A stretch of 62,677 bases of DNA, counting the filler, from Rhabdomonas costata (lineage: Eukaryota): NCBI GenBank assembly GCA_019059605.1. It is 24 parts of 24 records of this genome, joined end to end, with 100 filler letters (N's around TTAATTAATTAA, not from the genome) between each part and the next. Parts side by side here need not be neighbours in the genome. Positions count along the whole stretch, not along the records: positions 18,322 to 20,838 come from JAHMHO010003052.1; positions 20,939 to 23,455 come from JAHMHO010003053.1; 22 more parts are not named here. The stretch is one strand, 5' to 3'. Position 1 is the stretch's first letter, and each line of letters opens with the position of its first letter. A model generated the notes under the pieces. It saw nothing but the letters and a program-made list of their open reading frames with translations, had not been told where the DNA came from and ran no database searches. Positions 18,322-62,309 of the stretch are shown piece after piece. Position numbers and translations under genes: made by a program.

Positions 18322-18590
18322 TTTTGTGGTTGAGATTGAATTGATTGTATTTGTTGACTATTTTCGATGAGTTGTTTACTTTTTTTATTTATTTTTTGTG
18401 TAGTTGCTTTATTATTTAATTTACTAGATTGTGCAGATACTTTTTTAATAATTTTATCTGCTTTTGCATTTAATTGTTGAACTTCAGATTTTCCATCTAT
18501 TTTTGACGGCTTTTTACTTGTTGTTGTTGTTTGATCAGTACGTAATAACAATTTACAAGGAGTAGTAAAATCTATACGTGTAGTACTCAT
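18322..18590 (-). CDS. Hypothetical K/Q/S/T-rich viral-type protein, truncated by the contig end
   Basis: ATG at 18590 opens a frame running to the contig edge, with AT-rich codon usage. Confidence 0.6.
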
Positions 18591-18653
18591 TATATATTTA
18601 TTATAGGTTTTATTGGTATTAGTGACATGTATTTTATATATCTTGATTATAAA

Positions 18654-18661
18654 AAAATTGA
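18654..18661 (+). promoter_or_regulatory. AAAATTGA Mimiviridae-type early promoter motif
   Basis: Exact octamer about 110 nt upstream of ATG 18770, in an AT-rich intergenic region. Confidence 0.7.
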
Positions 18662-18769
18662 AATAATTAATTATTGATTGTTATTTCTTCTATAAATAAA
18701 TCAACTATAACAGCTACAAATCTTCAGCAATCTACAAATCTTGCGATCTAGAGATCTTCAAAAAAAAGA

Positions 18770-19339
18770 ATGTCTTCGACACAGCCGGCATCTTGGAGAA
18801 CATCACATATGTCTACTTATCATGCATCTAGGAACACAATGACACCGACAAACAAATCAACTTTTAGACCATTTGCAAACTTTCGAAATGACAATTGCAC
18901 GAACTGCGGTCGTTTTTGTGAAAAAAAAGATGTTACACTTTGTAATATCTGTTACACGGAATTACTCAAGAAACGACAAACAGAATCAGTTTGTGCGAAC
19001 TGTAAAAGACCGAAAAGTTTGAAAGCACTTCATCAACGTTATTGTGTTTCATGTTCAAGTGCTTACATCTTCAAGAAGTATCAAGAACAATCATGGGACA
19101 CAACTAAAATTAAGGTTGAAGACCTTAATAAGATGTTCAATATTCTTATTTATGTGTGTTTCAATGACTGTTCAGTGACAGTTGAAGATTGGCTGATCTT
19201 GGCAACAAAAATGAAGATCGAAATGACAGATATACAAAAAATAGCTGAACACAAAAAACAGTGTGCTTTATCTTCTCAGCACGATCAAGAAGTGAAAATG
19301 TACAATGATTTCCTGGCCTGCATTGTTTGCTTTGAATAA
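18770..19339 (+). CDS. Viral-type protein with four CxxC pairs (double zinc ribbon-like), 189 aa
   Basis: Intronless ORF containing CTNC, CNIC, CANC and YCVSC, followed by a helical C-terminal region. Confidence 0.8.
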   Translation: MSSTQPASWRTSHMSTYHASRNTMTPTNKSTFRPFANFRNDNCTNCGRFCEKKDVTLCNICYTELLKKRQTESVCANCKRPKSLKALHQRYCVSCSSAYIFKKYQEQSWDTTKIKVEDLNKMFNILIYVCFNDCSVTVEDWLILATKMKIEMTDIQKIAEHKKQCALSSQHDQEVKMYNDFLACIVCFE

Positions 19340-19400
19340 GCTCATAGCCATTGGCTATAATATTTTTTTAATTTCTTATTTTGTAATAAATTAAAAAATA

Positions 19401-19408
19401 AAAATTGA
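19401..19408 (+). promoter_or_regulatory. AAAATTGA early promoter motif
   Basis: Exact octamer about 90 nt upstream of ATG 19498. Confidence 0.7.
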
Positions 19409-19497
19409 AAGAAGTAACACCTGTATATCTCATGTATACTGTAATATTAGAGTATGACCGATAAGCTCATTCGATCTTTACTACAATTTGCAAAAGC

Positions 19498-19854
19498 ATG
19501 GCCCAGATCTGCGAAGCATGCCTCAAGCGGAATGCTGTGGAGAACTACACATTTTGCTTTGTCTGTTTCGCAAAACGTCGCCTGTCAAAGAAACAAATCA
19601 GACAAGACAAGGCCTGCGTAAAATGCGGCCAGACAAAGACAGGGACAGCGGAAGGCAGTCCTTACTGTGTTGACTGCGCAGTAATCCATCAGTTCTCGGA
19701 GCTGATGAAGCGGCCAGTCATCAGGCTACTTGAACAGGCTGACATTGTCAGCTTGTTCAAATTTTTCGCATTGACATGTTGTCGGATGAATCAACACATT
19801 CAGACACTGTCAACAACAAAAACAACATTTTTACATATTTCTATAACACGATAA
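19498..19854 (+). CDS. Paralog of 18770-19339 with four CxxC pairs, 118 aa, possibly C-terminally truncated
   Basis: CEAC, CFVC, CVKC and YCVDC have similar spacing to the upstream gene, and ADIVSLFKFFALTCC aligns with EDLNKMFNILIYVCF. Confidence 0.7.
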   Translation: MAQICEACLKRNAVENYTFCFVCFAKRRLSKKQIRQDKACVKCGQTKTGTAEGSPYCVDCAVIHQFSELMKRPVIRLLEQADIVSLFKFFALTCCRMNQHIQTLSTTKTTFLHISITR

Positions 19855-20639
19855 TATACTTCTATAGCAGTAGTATATCTCTTTAATTTTTTATATAGAT
19901 TTCCCAATTTACTTAGTAATGTACAATCTTCACTTTGTAAGCATACATTTTTTACAACATTAAGACGATGATCTATTATTTCTGTTTCCAAAACACAATC
20001 TATATAATAATTTGATATTGATCTATCATGTAAATGTTGTGAACTTATCAATTCCAATGCTTCTATGTATTTACCACAGTACAATACATATGACATAAGA
20101 ATCACACCAAGTTGTTTTGTTTTTAGACCTAAATGATCTTCAAGAAATTGTTTTAATTGTCTATCATAATATGTATCAAGATACAAATTTGTTAAATCTA
20201 ATAATTTTGATTTGTAATGTACTTTATTACATTGTGTAATTTCATAACAAACCATGTCGATTAAAGATAAATGTGCAGGCCAATAATTATGCATTATACG
20301 ACTAATAATTGTTTTGTATATAAAACTATTTTCATTAAAAAGAATATCTTGTACACCATTTTTTGTGCATATATCTACACATTTTTCCCATTTTTGATCA
20401 TTGATATGCAATTCATAACACATTATTCCTTTTTTATAAGAAAGATCACAAATGTCTATTATCTGTTTTACAAGATATTTAAAATGTTTATTAACATACG
20501 TTTTCATAAAATTTTCATTACTAAATATTTTATAGAATTTGTGATTGACAAGTGACAACTGTAATATTGATTCAAAATTAAAATATACATAGAATGGTGA
20601 ATTATAATATTGACCAAATAAATTCAATAATGTGTTCAT
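19800..20639 (-). CDS. F-box-like N-terminus plus C-terminal TPR protein (viral type). Likely start 20639, although the ORF extends to 20687.
   Basis: YFNFESILQLSLVNHKFYKIFSNENFMKTYVNKHF is F-box-like and LLSKLGNLYKKLKRYTTAIEVYYRVIEI is TPR-like. AAAATTGA lies 55 nt upstream on the minus strand. Confidence 0.75.
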   Translation of the reverse strand: MNTLLNLFGQYYNSPFYVYFNFESILQLSLVNHKFYKIFSNENFMKTYVNKHFKYLVKQIIDICDLSYKKGIMCYELHINDQKWEKCVDICTKNGVQDILFNENSFIYKTIISRIMHNYWPAHLSLIDMVCYEITQCNKVHYKSKLLDLTNLYLDTYYDRQLKQFLEDHLGLKTKQLGVILMSYVLYCGKYIEALELISSQHLHDRSISNYYIDCVLETEIIDHRLNVVKNVCLQSEDCTLLSKLGNLYKKLKRYTTAIEVYYRVIEICKNVVFVVDSV

Positions 20640-20656
20640 TGTTGATAATGATTGTA

Positions 20657-20833
20657 TTTTTATATTTATATTACTTTTAAAATACATTAAAAAATCAATT
20701 TTTATTTTTTTTTTAAATTCTAAAAATTTGTTATAATGAGTTGTGAAATTAGGATTTTATAAATTTTTAGAATTTAAAAAAGAAATAAAAATTGATTTTT
20801 TAATGTATTTTAAAAGTAATATAAATATAAAAA
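20657..20833. repeat. 73-bp inverted repeat (one mismatch) with a 31-nt spacer
   Basis: 20657-20729 is the reverse complement of 20761-20833 except at one base. Confidence 0.95.
20695..20702 (-). promoter_or_regulatory. AAAATTGA early promoter motif (mirror copy on + strand at 20788-20795)
   Basis: TCAATTTT on the + strand upstream of the F-box gene. Confidence 0.65.
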
Positions 20834-21332
20834 CACCCNNNNNNNNNNNNNNNNNNNNNNNNNNNNNNNNNNNNNNNNNNNNTTAATTAATTAANNNNNN
20901 NNNNNNNNNNNNNNNNNNNNNNNNNNNNNNNNNNNNNNTTTGGGGTCTTTCACGCTTGTTGCATGTTGGGAGTATAACTGCTTGCTGCTGGTGCTTGGTG
21001 GGAATATCACTTTATGGCAGCTAAAAAACGCTGTGGCGCAGAATAAGAATAACGTTTCTTGTTGCGGTTGTCTTCACTATGGGGGGGGGGGACAACCCAG
21101 GCCACTGGAATCCAGGAAACATGTGTATCGCACCACCCTTCCACCCTCCCTCCCTTAAGCCGGTTGGAATCAGGGATCATTGGCACACGCACGCACATTG
21201 GGTTTAAGCCCTAACACATTATTCGTCGTGGCATGTAGGTATGTCGGTATGTCGGAATGTACTTTACCACAGATAAAGTGGCACAACCAACGCCGACCCC
21301 TCCCTCCCACTCGCTTTTTTCTCGGCACTCAC

Positions 21333-36626: not shown

Positions 36627-39139
36627 GTTGGGGGGGGTGGGGGATGAGTTCTGCATTGCGGTGCGCCATGGAGGAGGAGGAGGAGGAGCTCCTGTTGCGG
36701 TAGGTACGCTTCCAGGAAGGCTGAGGTGGGGAGACGAGGGAAGGGAAGGCTCCACCTCCGCAGGGGCTTGGACGCAGAGCGGGACCTGGCCGTCACCCAG
36801 CAGAGTGCACGGCGAGGAGGGCGTGGGCGGAAGGGCGGCGGGTGCACCGGACACGCCGGGGACGCCGAGCATAGAGCCTGGACCCAACCCAGAGGATGAA
36901 GGACAGAGGGAGCAAAAGGGAGCAAAAGGGAGCAAAAGTGTGGCAGGTTCCATTTTTTTCTGCAACCTTCCATATACTTTGGTCTCTCCTCGAGAACCAG
37001 GCTGGTATGGGGACGGCAGATCAGCAAAAGACATGCGCACAGTCAAATTTAAAAGATCAGCGATGAGGTGCGCAGTACAACCACTCAAGAACATGAAGCC
37101 AATGCGTCAGGGTTGCGTGACACCCAAAAAATCTTCATAACAAAAATACAGCAAAATACATTCCGCCACCGAAAAGAAACTAAAGCTAAGATCGTACAAA
37201 ACACCAACTCGAACACACCTGGCCGACACTCGGTGGCACCAGCAGCGCTGCGGCCCATCGTGGGCAGCGTCACCTCCACTACAAACGTCGCCCCTCGACC
37301 CACCGCAGTCCCCTCCGGGTCCACGAAAAGCCGCCCACCCATCAGCTGCACCAGCTTCGCCGCGATCACCAGCCCAAGCCCGCTGCCCCCGTACTGCGCC
37401 CAGGTCTCCGCCGTGGCCTGCCCAAAGGCCTGGAAAAGCCGCCCCTGCTGCTCCGCGCTGAGCCCGATCCCCGTGTCCCGGACCTCCACCCGGACCGTGG
37501 TAAGGGGAAGGCTGCTGGCCCGGGGCCGTGTTAAGGGGGAGATGTTTGGGGTGCAGCCGTCGTCGGCGGAAAAGCCGGAGAGATAGAGCCCTACCGACCC
37601 CTTCTCGGTGAACTTGATGGAATTGGAGAGTAGGCTGAAAAGGAGGGAGAGGGGTTCGGGGACCGAACAGCACAGAAAGCTTGCAGGAAGGAACACGTGC
37701 GCAGGAGCTGCATTTCTCGTGTTGAGTGTGGCAACGGCAACATGTTTTGAAAGACGGTCAGGCTCCATGATAGCAGATGGCGAGCTGGAGAGCGCGAAGG
37801 AGCGCGAAAAGGCACCACACCAAAAATCATCCCGCAAAGATAGTAATACTCGTTTGACAAAACTCGGCACTTTTCGTTGAACCTACACTCAATAGCGCAG
37901 CATTCAAAGACAAGACTGACAAAAAATACCCACAAGAAAAGGCAGCAAATAGTCGCAAAAACAGTGCAGGACTGCCACACTTCAGCAGCGCCTGGCGAAG
38001 CCGGCTGGCATCCCCAAGGAACATAGGCAGGTCCTCCCCGCCTTGCAAAAAGAGGCTCAGCCCCTTCTTCGTCGCCTGGTGCTGGACCATCTGCAGCGCA
38101 TCATGGCAGGCCTCCACGAGGCTGAAGGGCTTGGACTGCAGCACCACGCTGCTGGCTTCCAAGCGAGCGGTCTCCTATTGTCCACAGTGGGAGAAAAGGC
38201 AAGCGCAACGAGCATGGAGCGTCGTATATACGTATTTTCTGAACTGTTTTTGCACACATCCGCATTCAGGTTGCATTTCGGTGACAAAAGAAGTTCAAGA
38301 CTCAGCTTCCATCCTGATGCTGTTTACGACCCCCCTTGTGTAGGGTACAGGTCAAAACTGATCACATACAAGGGACGAATGTGACATAACAGCAGAACAA
38401 GCCACTAAAGAATGGAAGTGCGAAATACAGAGTGGAAGTCGAATTTTTTTTTTACGTCAAAAACATGGTTCTTTTTCACAAAAGGGCAATCCAATTGATA
38501 GACACGAAGCCAAAGGGAGTCTTCAAGTAGTGTCAGCTGGATGGGGCTTAAGCCGAAGCACAGTACGTGTCACAAGGTATATAATAATGCGTTGGACAAT
38601 TTTTTTTTTAAAATTTTAATCTAGCGAATCAAAAAAGGGAACAAAACACAGGATTGCGAGCAATCTGATGCACCTAACAACAGCATATCGAAAAGAAACC
38701 TCCTGCAAACCCATCGTCTGGCCAAAAATATTAGAAACAGATTAAAATAAAAATACTGGCACGACTCAGGTGCCTTGAGCTATCAACCAGCTCGGTCGGC
38801 GACGTTGCTGGTGGTACACTACCGAACTCAACGAGATGTCTACTTGATTTGCTGCACACGTAGATTTCCCAGTCCGAAGGAGTTTGACTTTTTTACCCAA
38901 AAAGGCACAAAAAGAAACAGCGTCATAAGCTCGCCAAATAGTGACCACCGCGAGACAACCGAGAGGGTTGAAAGAATACCAGTGCACATGCGCCTAGGTT
39001 ACGGGTGCAAGAAAAAGCCAGCCAGGAGGCAACGCGCACGTACCAGCACGTAGTCCACGTTGTTCGTGATCTGTGAGCCGCAGCTCAGGATCAGCTCAAG
39101 AAGCTCCCGCTGGCCAGCCTCCAGGGCGGTGTCCCACAA
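36627..39139 (-). CDS. Sensor histidine kinase, probably hybrid type: end of HisKA plus HATPase_c (exons 39139-39044, 38174-37981, 37634-37219, 36877-36627)
   Basis: DTALEAGQRELLELILSCG, GDASRLRQALLNLLSNSIKFT (N box), VRDTGIG (G1), LFQAFGQA (F box), YGGSGLGLVIAAKLVQLMGG (G2). All three GT-AG introns are phase-consistent. Confidence 0.93.
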
Positions 39140-59912: not shown

Positions 59913-60744
59913 CTACGAATACGAAAAGAGTAGGGTAAATTAGACAGCCCCCTTCCAGGGCATGCAGTGAGACGTACTGGTCATCCTGGTGGAACCGTCA
60001 GAAACGGAAAGGTATAACACGGAATCCAGAGCGCATCATAGGAGTTCCGGGAGTGTCCCAACANNNNNNNNNNNNNNNNNNNNNNNNNNNNNNNNNNNNN
60101 NNNNNNNTTAATTAATTAANNNNNNNNNNNNNNNNNNNNNNNNNNNNNNNNNNNNNNNNNNNNGTTTTTGGGTCTAATGTGACCAGGCATTCAAGGGATG
60201 CCGACCGCTTACCGGGGAGCTGATTGCGCTGATGACGCGGGTATTTCATCTGCATTTCAAGGTGACATTTTTTTTGGGAGAAACGTATATTTTTCTTGAA
60301 CCTCCAGACGCAACGGATACAGGAGCGAGTTCGTGTCCACCAGTTTGGGGAGCACAGCAGGGTGAGAATAAACAACTGAAGAATGCCCAGACATGTGCGG
60401 AGAGCCCATGAATGATGGGAAAGCCATGGTTGAGATCTAGATTTGGAGTCACCATGTTCGCTTGGGGTCCTGCTCTCCTTTATTGTCTGCCGCCCTTTCT
60501 CGTGGCTTCCACCTCTCTTCTTTTTCCTCTCCTTCCCTTTCACTCTACGCAATCAGCTCCCCGGTAAGCGGTCGGCATCCCTTGAATGCCTGGTCACATT
60601 AGTTCTGACGCTACCCCATTCCCGTTCTGCGCCCCTCCGACCTCCATTTGTTCGTGTTTGGGTGGGTTGTACGATCATGGACCGGACTTACAGGGAGGGT
60701 TCACTTCCATTCCCCACAGTATGCAATTGCAAAAACCCTACCAG

Positions 60745-62309
60745 GTGCGGACCGTGTACGCCCACGGCAACCTCCCCAAGGGCTCCACCCCTCTGTTGGT
60801 CGCCGTGCACTCCCAGAACCTGAAGGCCGTTCAGCTTCTGCTTGGGGCCCGGGCCTCCCCCCACACCAAAACCGACCCCACTCCGTGTGGAGCCACCCTG
60901 ACCCCTCTCTCCCTTGCCGAGAAGATGCTCAAGGAGCATGAGAGCTGCCAGCTTTACCCCGACAGCGCGCAGATCCTGCTGCTGTTGGTGCAGGCGCAGG
61001 TCATCCCGGCCTCCGTGAAGCCGACTGAGAAGCGGCACCCCCTTCTGTCCATTCTGTGGATCTCCACCTCGTCGAACTTCTCGCCCAGCACGCACCACCT
61101 GCGGAGGCTAATCGAGAAGTCGGGCTCGTTGTGCCTGCGGACGGTGAGCTGCCCGGCGTGGGCCTGCCAGTGGGGGTACGAGGACAACCGCAAGCGGCTG
61201 GATCGCCAGCGCCTCGAGGAGTGGTCCGCCGAGGTGTTCGACATGTTTCTGAGTGACCTCGACGACACCGCGACAGAGCCCTTGACGTGGCTGCAGACCG
61301 TGGTGCTGGAGCTCGACGACCCGGAGAGGTTGCAGGTCTGGGACTTCCTGGTGAAGAAGCTGCAGCGGCACATCGAAAGCCGGCGTGGGGACTCCGGGGC
61401 GCCCTGGCTGAAGATCCTCACCTTTGGTGCGTAGGCTGCCCCCCCCCCCTCCGGGAGATTTAAGTTGTTTGTGTAGTCGCCTAAGTTTTCGATATTATTT
61501 AGGCGCGATTTTTTTTACACCACGTAAGAAGTTCATGTGGTTTTGTGGGTTGTATCCGCTGTTTTTAAGGGCCCCATAGGGAAGAAGCGTGTGCAGCCGC
61601 GGGTAGGGAAGTGGGTGGATGCATCCTTCTTGAAAAGAGCCTAGTTCTGCAAAAGTTGAACACCACCACCACTGCTGCTGCTACTACAACTGCCACCAAT
61701 TGATCAATATCTGTTCACTGGTGCAGATTAGGGCAGTTTTGGCTGGCGTCAGCTTTTCCTTTTTGTTCATTGATACCCGTCATGAAATGCTGCATTCCCT
61801 GTTGCAGTTGCGTCATCATGCCTTTTCGGTTATGAAGCGTTGGTGGCGGAACATTCTTTCCAACAGGTTGTCGACCTGCTGTGGTTGTGTCTTTTTGTGA
61901 TTTTTTTTTGTGTTTATTCGCCATCCTTACACATCAAAATGGTTTGGGAGGGACATCACGGCGGATGACTAACAAAAACGTAATCATTGGTGGGAGGCAG
62001 ATTGGTGTCACTTGGTTTCCTGCCTCCCCCCTCCCTCCACACGGTCTCCTTTACCTCAGCGTTCGGCTTCAAGGGGCACCCCTTCACGAAAGACCTCGAG
62101 GAGAAGCTCTACATCTGCGACCGCGCCAGCGAGGACGACCCGGAGAGCACCTTCATCCTGTTCAACACGGCGATTGCGAAGCACAAGAACATGCACGTCG
62201 TGCCCGCTGAGCACGAGATCCCTCACGGCCAGGATGACCCCACGGAAACGGACTGTGTCCCGCCTGTGATGGCGATGCACACCCTGCTGCAGGAGAGCGT
62301 GCGCCACTG
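60745..62309 (+). CDS. Ankyrin-repeat-containing protein, internal exons (60745-61426, 62060-62309)
   Basis: GSTPLLVAVHSQNLKAVQLLLGARASP...TPLSLA is an ankyrin motif. A phase-1 GTGCGT..CAG intron joins LKILTF/AFGFKGHPF. Confidence 0.75.

Follow-up and report, generated by a model that had tools for sequence, protein, structure and literature searches.

Promoter octamers and 3' hairpins of giant-virus type on an orphan AT-rich contig in the Rhabdomonas costata assembly

The most AT-rich contig in a stretch of DNA from the genome assembly of Rhabdomonas costata (GCA_019059605.1) has the look of DNA that the transcription machinery of a giant virus would read. The stretch, referred to here as the window, consists of 24 contigs of 2507 to 2518 bp that were joined by N/TTAATTAATTAA spacers to a total of 62,677 bases; because it is a concatenation, neighbors within the window have no meaning as physical context for the contig under study, which occupies positions 18322 to 20838. 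This contig probably comes from an undescribed giant virus or from an element that depends on one. On balance, and with modest confidence, we favor the reading that it is a genome fragment of an undescribed and very AT-rich large DNA virus (Nucleocytoviricota) with a mimivirus-type transcription apparatus. The signals that point in this direction are copies of the octamer AAAATTGA, all of which lie in the intergenic DNA of the contig, and hairpins that follow stop codons.

The contig is 2517 bp long, and both of its ends are assembly breaks. An initial sequence-only reading had singled it out as the most AT-rich contig of the window, and this was borne out by a GC content of 28.5%, the lowest of the 24, versus 39.5 to 54.9% in the other 23 contigs. 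Along its length the GC content varied from 12 to 54% per 100 nt, and no host-like flank was seen. Open reading frames (ORFs) were called with the standard genetic code; they lack introns, they cover 2029 of the 2517 nt (81%), and they are separated by intergenic spacers of about 115 to 180 nt. The four intronless ORFs of the sequence-only reading were all found, together with the start of a fifth gene. In order along the contig they are ORF4 (18322 to 18590, minus strand), ORF1 (18770 to 19339, plus strand), ORF2 (19498 to 19854, plus strand), ORF3 (19800 to 20687, minus strand), and the beginning of the fifth gene (20803 to 20838, plus strand). ORF2 and ORF3 are convergent and share 55 nt at their 3' ends.

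Four copies of AAAATTGA are present on the contig, beginning at 18654 and 19401 (plus strand), 20695 (minus strand), and 20788 (plus strand). The first (18654 to 18661), which has the extended form AAAAATTGA, ends 108 nt before the ATG of ORF1, and the second (19401 to 19408; AATAAAAATTGA) ends 89 nt before the ATG of ORF2. The third (20695 to 20702) lies 55 nt ahead of Met17 of ORF3, and the fourth (20788 to 20795) is found in the outer arm of an inverted repeat, ahead of the fifth gene. These values match the distances of about 110, 90, and 55 nt upstream of three ORFs that had been proposed from the sequence, provided that the last is counted from Met17. Because the third and fourth copies mirror each other inside the 76-nt inverted repeat, the number of independent sites is three. 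All of the sites are intergenic, and each of the three spacers has one. Three of the four genes with a complete start carry the octamer within 150 nt upstream, and the truncated fifth gene has one as well; the ORF4 side of the divergent ORF4/ORF1 intergenic region has none.

The placement of the octamer was evaluated after removal of the second repeat arm. No copy fell in the 2029 nt of coding DNA, versus three in the 410 nt between genes. When the intergenic regions were shuffled with their dinucleotides preserved, the mean was 0.19 copies, and a total of three or more was reached in only 3 of 10,000 shuffles; a copy in every one of the three regions occurred in 1 of 10,000. When no prior knowledge of the motif was used, AAAAATTGA (with its complement) emerged as the one 9-mer that every intergenic region contains. 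This 9-mer is the form that the early motif takes in Cafeteria roenbergensis virus (CroV). Among 168 8-mers with the base composition of AAAATTGA, 156 were absent from the intergenic DNA, and just AAAATTGA and the overlapping AAAAATTG reached three copies. By comparison, all 11 variants of AAAATTGA with one mismatch were located in coding DNA or in the spacer of the inverted repeat. These results confirmed that the octamer is enriched in intergenic DNA, and is correctly placed there, beyond chance. An excess over the expectation from base composition held for its intergenic placement and not for its count over the whole contig, which is taken up below.

Downstream of ORF1, two hairpins were found on the plus strand between 19344 and 19398, their starts lying 5 and 25 nt past the stop codon. 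The first has a 6-bp stem (19344 to 19358) and the second a stem of about 15 bp (19364 to 19398), the latter ending 2 nt short of the next AAAATTGA. The DNA that follows the ORF1 stop codon folded with a z score of -2.7, and none of 200 shuffles was as stable. After the stop codon of ORF3 the z score was -4.2, again with no shuffle of 200 as stable; here, a palindrome at 19730 to 19760, whose stem of about 14 bp closes a 3-nt loop, lies 40 nt past the stop codon on the minus strand and inside the coding sequence of ORF2. The hairpins at 19344 to 19398 are a candidate 3'-end or polyadenylation signal of ORF1, and the palindrome is a candidate 3'-end hairpin of ORF3. A strong hairpin was present within 75 nt of two of the three visible stop codons, a number of genes too small for a general rule. 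When short-looped stems of 9 bp or more were sought, this contig yielded three (15, 14, and 11 bp), whereas the other 23 contigs together gave 10, the longest of which was 13 bp.

Both signals have counterparts in known giant viruses. In mimivirus, AAAATTGA is reported within 150 nt upstream of 45% of the genes, with a mean intergenic length of 157 nt, and the same early motif is reported ahead of 35% of the genes of CroV (PMC5294985). For moumouvirus, the motif is described at 37.7% of genes and 3' hairpins at 78% (PMC3542560), and a review lists the AAAATTGA promoter and the 3' hairpins as keys by which Mimiviridae can be recognized, partial sequences included (PMC6163669). The contig shares with Mimiviridae/Imitervirales the exact octamer within 150 nt upstream of genes, hairpins within 150 nt past two of three stop codons, a GC content of about 28%, spacers of about 160 nt, and a gene content of orphans (ORFans) with local expansion of paralogues. 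By the promoter criterion, and more tentatively by that of the hairpins, the contig behaves like Mimiviridae DNA. It differs from that group in that its proteins have no similarity to any viral protein in IMG/VR or in the protein collections searched, in that it carries no core gene, and in that one of its palindromes sits inside a coding region. Neither signal is peculiar to Mimiviridae. Reports of AAAATTGA also cover 44% of pacmanvirus genes, African swine fever virus (ASFV), some iridoviruses, and the transpoviron of pacmanvirus (PMC11788076); a variant with one mismatch is described as being in use in Aureococcus anophagefferens virus (AaV) (PMC5917014); and hairpin 3' ends are known from pithoviruses and iridoviruses too, according to PMC11814242. 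The sequence-only reading had assigned the contig to a virus of the Imitervirales. The octamer on which it drew is upheld by these results as a giant-virus-type signal, whereas the placement in a family, which depended on a motif shared by other groups, is not, and neither as yet is the virus-host link that it envisaged.

The reality of the genes was judged from their length, paralogy, and codon usage. Stop-free frames on the contig extend over 318, 195, 129, and 119 codons, whereas the longest frame in each of 500 shuffles of the contig averaged 76 codons, with a maximum of 157. Since the frames of 318 and 195 codons exceed this maximum, ORF3 and ORF1 are real by length alone. ORF1 encodes 189 amino acids (aa) with two CxxC...CxxC units that resemble zinc ribbons, and has a GC content at third codon positions (GC3) of 33%. 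ORF2 encodes 118 aa, has 45% GC and a GC3 of 50%, and is a weak paralogue of ORF1 (BLASTP E value of 2e-4), with all eight cysteines of the two CxxC...CxxC units aligned; it is on this paralogy that ORF2 is taken to be genuine. ORF3 encodes 295 aa, or 279 aa if translation begins at Met17 (20639), ends in TGA, and has a GC3 of 13.5%. ORF4, which starts at 18590 and has lost its 3' end at the end of the contig, encodes at least 89 aa of a basic, K/T/S/Q-rich composition; its GC content is 35% at first, 37% at second, and 7% at third codon positions, and it is on this codon-position bias that ORF4 is taken to be genuine. Within 2.5 kb, GC3 thus ranges from 50 and 33% in ORF2 and ORF1 to 13.5 and 7% in ORF3 and ORF4. 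It is the zinc-ribbon paralogues that are richer in GC, and each of them stands behind a copy of AAAATTGA. ORF1 and ORF3 together have five Trp codons, each of them TGG, as any frame in the standard code requires. Other codes were considered and set aside: reading TGA as Trp, as in the organelle/mycoplasma code, would extend ORF3 by 46 codons into ORF2, which argues against it, and alternative codes (4, 6, and others) gave merely extra overlapping frames or an ORF3 that ran into ORF2.

A 76-nt inverted repeat lies at the right-hand end of the contig. The inner arm (20654 to 20729) spans the promoter of ORF3 and the first 11 codons counted from the ATG at 20687, and the outer arm (20761 to 20836), which has its own AAAATTGA, is complementary to it at 74 of 76 positions across a spacer of 31 nt. 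The repeat is a local head-to-head duplication of the ORF3 promoter and gene head that gives rise to a second gene from 20803. Of this fifth gene, the first 12 codons are visible before the contig ends; its first 10 residues are those of ORF3 and the sequence diverges thereafter, and the gene is probably a paralogue of ORF3. An assembly fold-back as the origin of the repeat was rejected, since the two copies carry 2 mismatches over 76 positions and cease to match at the outer end. Local duplication of genes is seen twice on the contig, once in the zinc-ribbon pair of ORF1 and ORF2 and once in ORF3, whose head-to-head copy has a promoter copied with it. A direct repeat is also present at 18714 to 18742 (plus strand), where two copies of the 11-nt sequence CTACAAATCTT lie 18 nt apart in what is presumed to be the 5' leader of ORF1. 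These are followed by further copies of GATCT(T) at 18746 to 18758 and then by a run of eight A's directly before the ORF1 ATG.

Searches for relatives of the encoded proteins, which the sequence-only reading had put forward as a check on its proposal, produced only generic matches, and those only for ORF3. A word-indexed search of 5.8 billion protein clusters, in which candidates of near-query size were examined, gave no relative of ORF1, ORF2, or ORF3. An exhaustive phmmer search with ORF3 against 1.84 billion representatives returned 62 proteins of tetratricopeptide repeat (TPR) type at an E value of 1e-3 or lower; in 61 of the 62 the best stretch lay within residues 180 to 293, and the four top matches that were checked were all long multi-TPR proteins. 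These matches reflect the generic TPR repeat motif and not orthology. In agreement with this, Pfam TPR_1 (PF00515) matched a unit at residues 258 to 287 with an E value of 5.9e-6 and 26.3 bits, slightly below the cut-off of 27.8, and by sequence similarity one TPR repeat in ORF3 seems clear. ORF3 had also been labeled an F-box protein. F-boxes normally sit near the N terminus, and a weak F-box-like stretch is indeed found there, but the match to PF00646 (residues 35 to 61) was not significant (E value of 0.094; 13.1 bits versus a cut-off of 20.5), and the label was not sustained. ORF3 is predicted to be all helical. ORF3 resembles the F-box/TPR (or Sel1) adaptors of eukaryotes and giant viruses in having one TPR unit, a helical prediction, and a weak F-box-like N terminus, and is unlike them in that its F-box falls below significance and no orthologue was found. 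Scores from the ESM Atlas were 0.76 to 0.84 (0.78 to 0.83 for the F-box leads), a range below the level at which this tool provides more than leads. Single-sequence AlphaFold2 models were unusable, with predicted local distance difference test (pLDDT) values of 37 for ORF3 and 42 for ORF1.

Other collections were equally unproductive. A scan of GTDB genomes with ORF1 gave no relative, nor did a DNA search of phage records or a tblastn search of plasmid records with ORF3. Comparison of ORF1, ORF2, and their joint profile with PDB sequences yielded best E values of 0.15 to 0.6, which are noise, and a scan of PHROGs with the four ORFs gave nothing below an E value of 0.01. ORF4 was compared with the Pfam and PHROGs profile libraries, the only collections scanned with it, and nothing significant was obtained. 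Weak Pfam matches to a Death domain, an XAF1 zinc finger, TAFA, a double zinc ribbon, and spectrin were all below their cut-offs and were discarded.

Several observations weigh against a viral origin or against its narrower forms. No hallmark or virus-affiliated gene (major capsid protein [MCP], PolB, A32 ATPase, VLTF3, or RNA polymerase subunits) is present on the contig, and since no core gene falls within its 2.5 kb, phylogenetic placement is not possible. Scans of IMG/VR with ORF3, ORF1, the ORF1/ORF2 profile, and an exact 37-mer ended with zero confirmed loci, and scans of JGI metagenomes with ORF3 and ORF1 gave no relative. Because no viral relatives were found, the viral assignment is carried wholly by regulatory signals and architecture in 2.5 kb of DNA. 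The signals themselves have weak points. The count of AAAATTGA over the whole contig is unremarkable, as 206 of 3000 shuffles contained three or more copies and 0.91 were expected (second repeat arm removed); with all four copies counted, 77 of 5000 shuffles reached four or more. The orientation of the motif is informative in just one of the three intergenic regions, the other two being divergent, so that either orientation faces a gene. Just 7 nt separate the motif from the ATG at 20687, the first in frame for ORF3, and the gap of 55 nt assumes a start at Met17. No hairpin follows the stop codon of ORF2 (z score of +0.6), and the strong palindrome on the contig sits inside the coding sequence of that same gene. 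Finally, because AAAATTGA occurs in several other groups, it cannot place the contig in Imitervirales.

The absence of any viral gene from the contig and the unremarkable whole-contig count of the motif are also what would be expected if the DNA came from an AT-rich cellular or organellar source, such as a protist contaminant, a microsporidian-like parasite, a symbiotic bacterium, or a mitochondrion (its DNA or a plasmid), in which case AAAATTGA would be a by-product of A/T richness. Compact AT-rich genomes that are rich in orphan genes exist, and TPR and possible F-box architectures, as in the Atlas leads, are mainly eukaryotic. We nevertheless consider such a source highly doubtful. By the shuffles described above, base composition makes the placement of the motif very improbable, in both total number and distribution over the regions, and AAAAATTGA is the sole 9-mer shared by the intergenic regions; hairpins follow stop codons; the 1.84 billion representatives gave just generic TPR proteins as matches to ORF3, and GTDB gave no relative of ORF1; and tRNA, rRNA, and Rfam searches of the whole window gave no match. 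The standard code fits the contig, and TGA as Trp does not. A separate question from that of identity is whether a fragment of viral origin has been endogenised, and is possibly decaying, in the nuclear genome of the eukaryote. Insertions of giant-virus DNA in protist and algal genomes have been widely reported, and the contig was assembled beside eukaryote-like contigs of a similar size class. On the contig itself, however, there is no host-like flank, and the one GC-rich stretch is an intact ORF paralogous to ORF1; moreover, all ORFs are intact, the GC3 bias is extreme (7 to 13%), and promoters and hairpins are exact, so that no sign of decay is seen. Endogenisation is accordingly possible, if rather unlikely.

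The same signals would be found on a small element that takes its promoters from a giant virus on which it depends. Such an element could be a polinton-like virus or virophage, a linear episome of transpoviron type, or a multi-copy episome that has been excised, and it could be free or integrated in the host. The polinton-like virophage PgVV-14T, a small dependent virus, is reported to carry the AAAATTGA early motif ahead of five genes, and such elements are described as integrating into algal genomes (bioRxiv 10.1101/2022.07.28.501842). In the pacmanvirus system, which is placed with the extended Asfarviridae, descriptions exist of the transpoviron, of a 2-kb episome whose ORFan genes are paralogues of one another and are each preceded by AAAATTGA, and of zinc-finger genes in multiple copies (PMC11788076). 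Transpovirons of Mimiviridae are reported to have a core zinc-finger protein with a paralogue encoded elsewhere on the element, and to use the promoters and hairpins of the host virus (PMC7031253). The contig resembles these elements in being AT-rich, in carrying adjacent paralogous zinc-ribbon ORFs, in having only ORFans as genes, and in having an inverted repeat at one end; the likeness of ORF1/ORF2 to the transpoviron pair is one without demonstrated homology. The differences are equally apparent. The zinc fingers of pacmanvirus are described as C2H2, unlike the CxxC...CxxC ribbons of the contig, and no sequence similarity was found; the 3' motif described for pacmanvirus is the T-rich WWTTTATTTTTTAWW, for which no systematic search was made on the contig. 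The helicase, the linear form of about 7 kb, and the terminal inverted repeats described for transpovirons are not seen on the 2.5-kb piece, where the repeat is a local duplication of promoter and gene with a 31-nt spacer and not a terminal pair. Nor does the contig carry a capsid, packaging ATPase, polymerase, or integrase/recombinase gene. Scans of the four ORFs with Pfam and PHROGs gave nothing significant for the double jelly-roll capsid and penton proteins, packaging ATPase, protease, or integrase that mark virophages and polinton-like viruses, although an element could extend past the contig. In addition, the IMG/VR scans gave no related locus, the likeness to transpovirons and virophages is one of description and not of direct sequence comparison, and a 2.5-kb sample of an ORFan-rich giant virus genome would look identical. 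We regard a dependent element as unlikely.

Under the favored reading, that of a fragment from the genome of an AT-rich giant virus, each gene would be a separate transcription unit read by virus-encoded machinery of mimivirus type. Early expression from the AAAAATTGA box would apply to ORF1, ORF2, ORF3, and the ORF3 copy, with transcription starting shortly past the octamer through the viral RNA polymerase and early factor, and with transcripts ending, or gaining poly(A), at the hairpins. ORF4, which has no box, may belong to another temporal class, perhaps the late one. ORF1 and ORF2 are predicted to be small proteins that bind zinc and have nucleic acid or protein as a further ligand, and ORF3 could be a TPR adaptor built of helical repeats, perhaps one that hijacks the host ubiquitin ligase in the manner of an F-box protein. 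The GC3 values of 33 and 50%, against 7 to 13% in the other genes, suggest that ORF1 and ORF2 may be more recent acquisitions that were set behind early promoters. A more far-reaching version, which is speculative and which we think distinctly improbable, envisages a lineage with no sequenced relative, either a giant virus or a small promoter-borrowing episome of transpoviron or 'PLE' type, in which GC-rich, host-like genes (ORF2 and ORF1) would have been captured behind AAAAATTGA modules within a backbone of 7 to 13% GC3, and in which modules of promoter and gene head would have been duplicated head to head. The early promoter would then be both an expression signal and a joint for capture and duplication.

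It is already known that protist assemblies can contain fragments of giant viruses, and alone a 2.5-kb orphan fragment with neither hallmark gene nor host link adds little. If the finding were confirmed in the rest of the assembly, it would indicate an unsequenced AT-rich giant virus or satellite associated with this eukaryote, and a candidate virus-host pair would have been found without any protein homology. A regulatory grammar such as that described here (one octamer per intergenic region, hairpins after stop codons, and spacers of 115 to 180 nt) can flag viral DNA when the genes are all orphans.

The remaining contigs of the window are eukaryote-like, with about 50% GC and few ORFs; none of these 23, which sample about 58 kb of the assembly, is AT-rich or ORF-dense. 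The second most AT-rich contig (13087 to 15604; 39.5% GC) has a single AAAATTGA and no ORF longer than 82 aa, and it does not look viral. Six long frames from contigs of about 50% GC were compared with Pfam, and four of them gave no match. Of the other two, at 37085 to 37882 (minus strand) and 60586 to 61434 (plus strand), one has a HATPase_c domain (the ATPase domain of histidine-kinase/HSP90 type; E value of 3e-16) and the other a single ankyrin repeat (E value of 1.8e-4). In the contig that follows the AT-rich one in the window, a run of about 11 G's at 21081 to 21092 probably reflects either low complexity or an artefact of sequencing.

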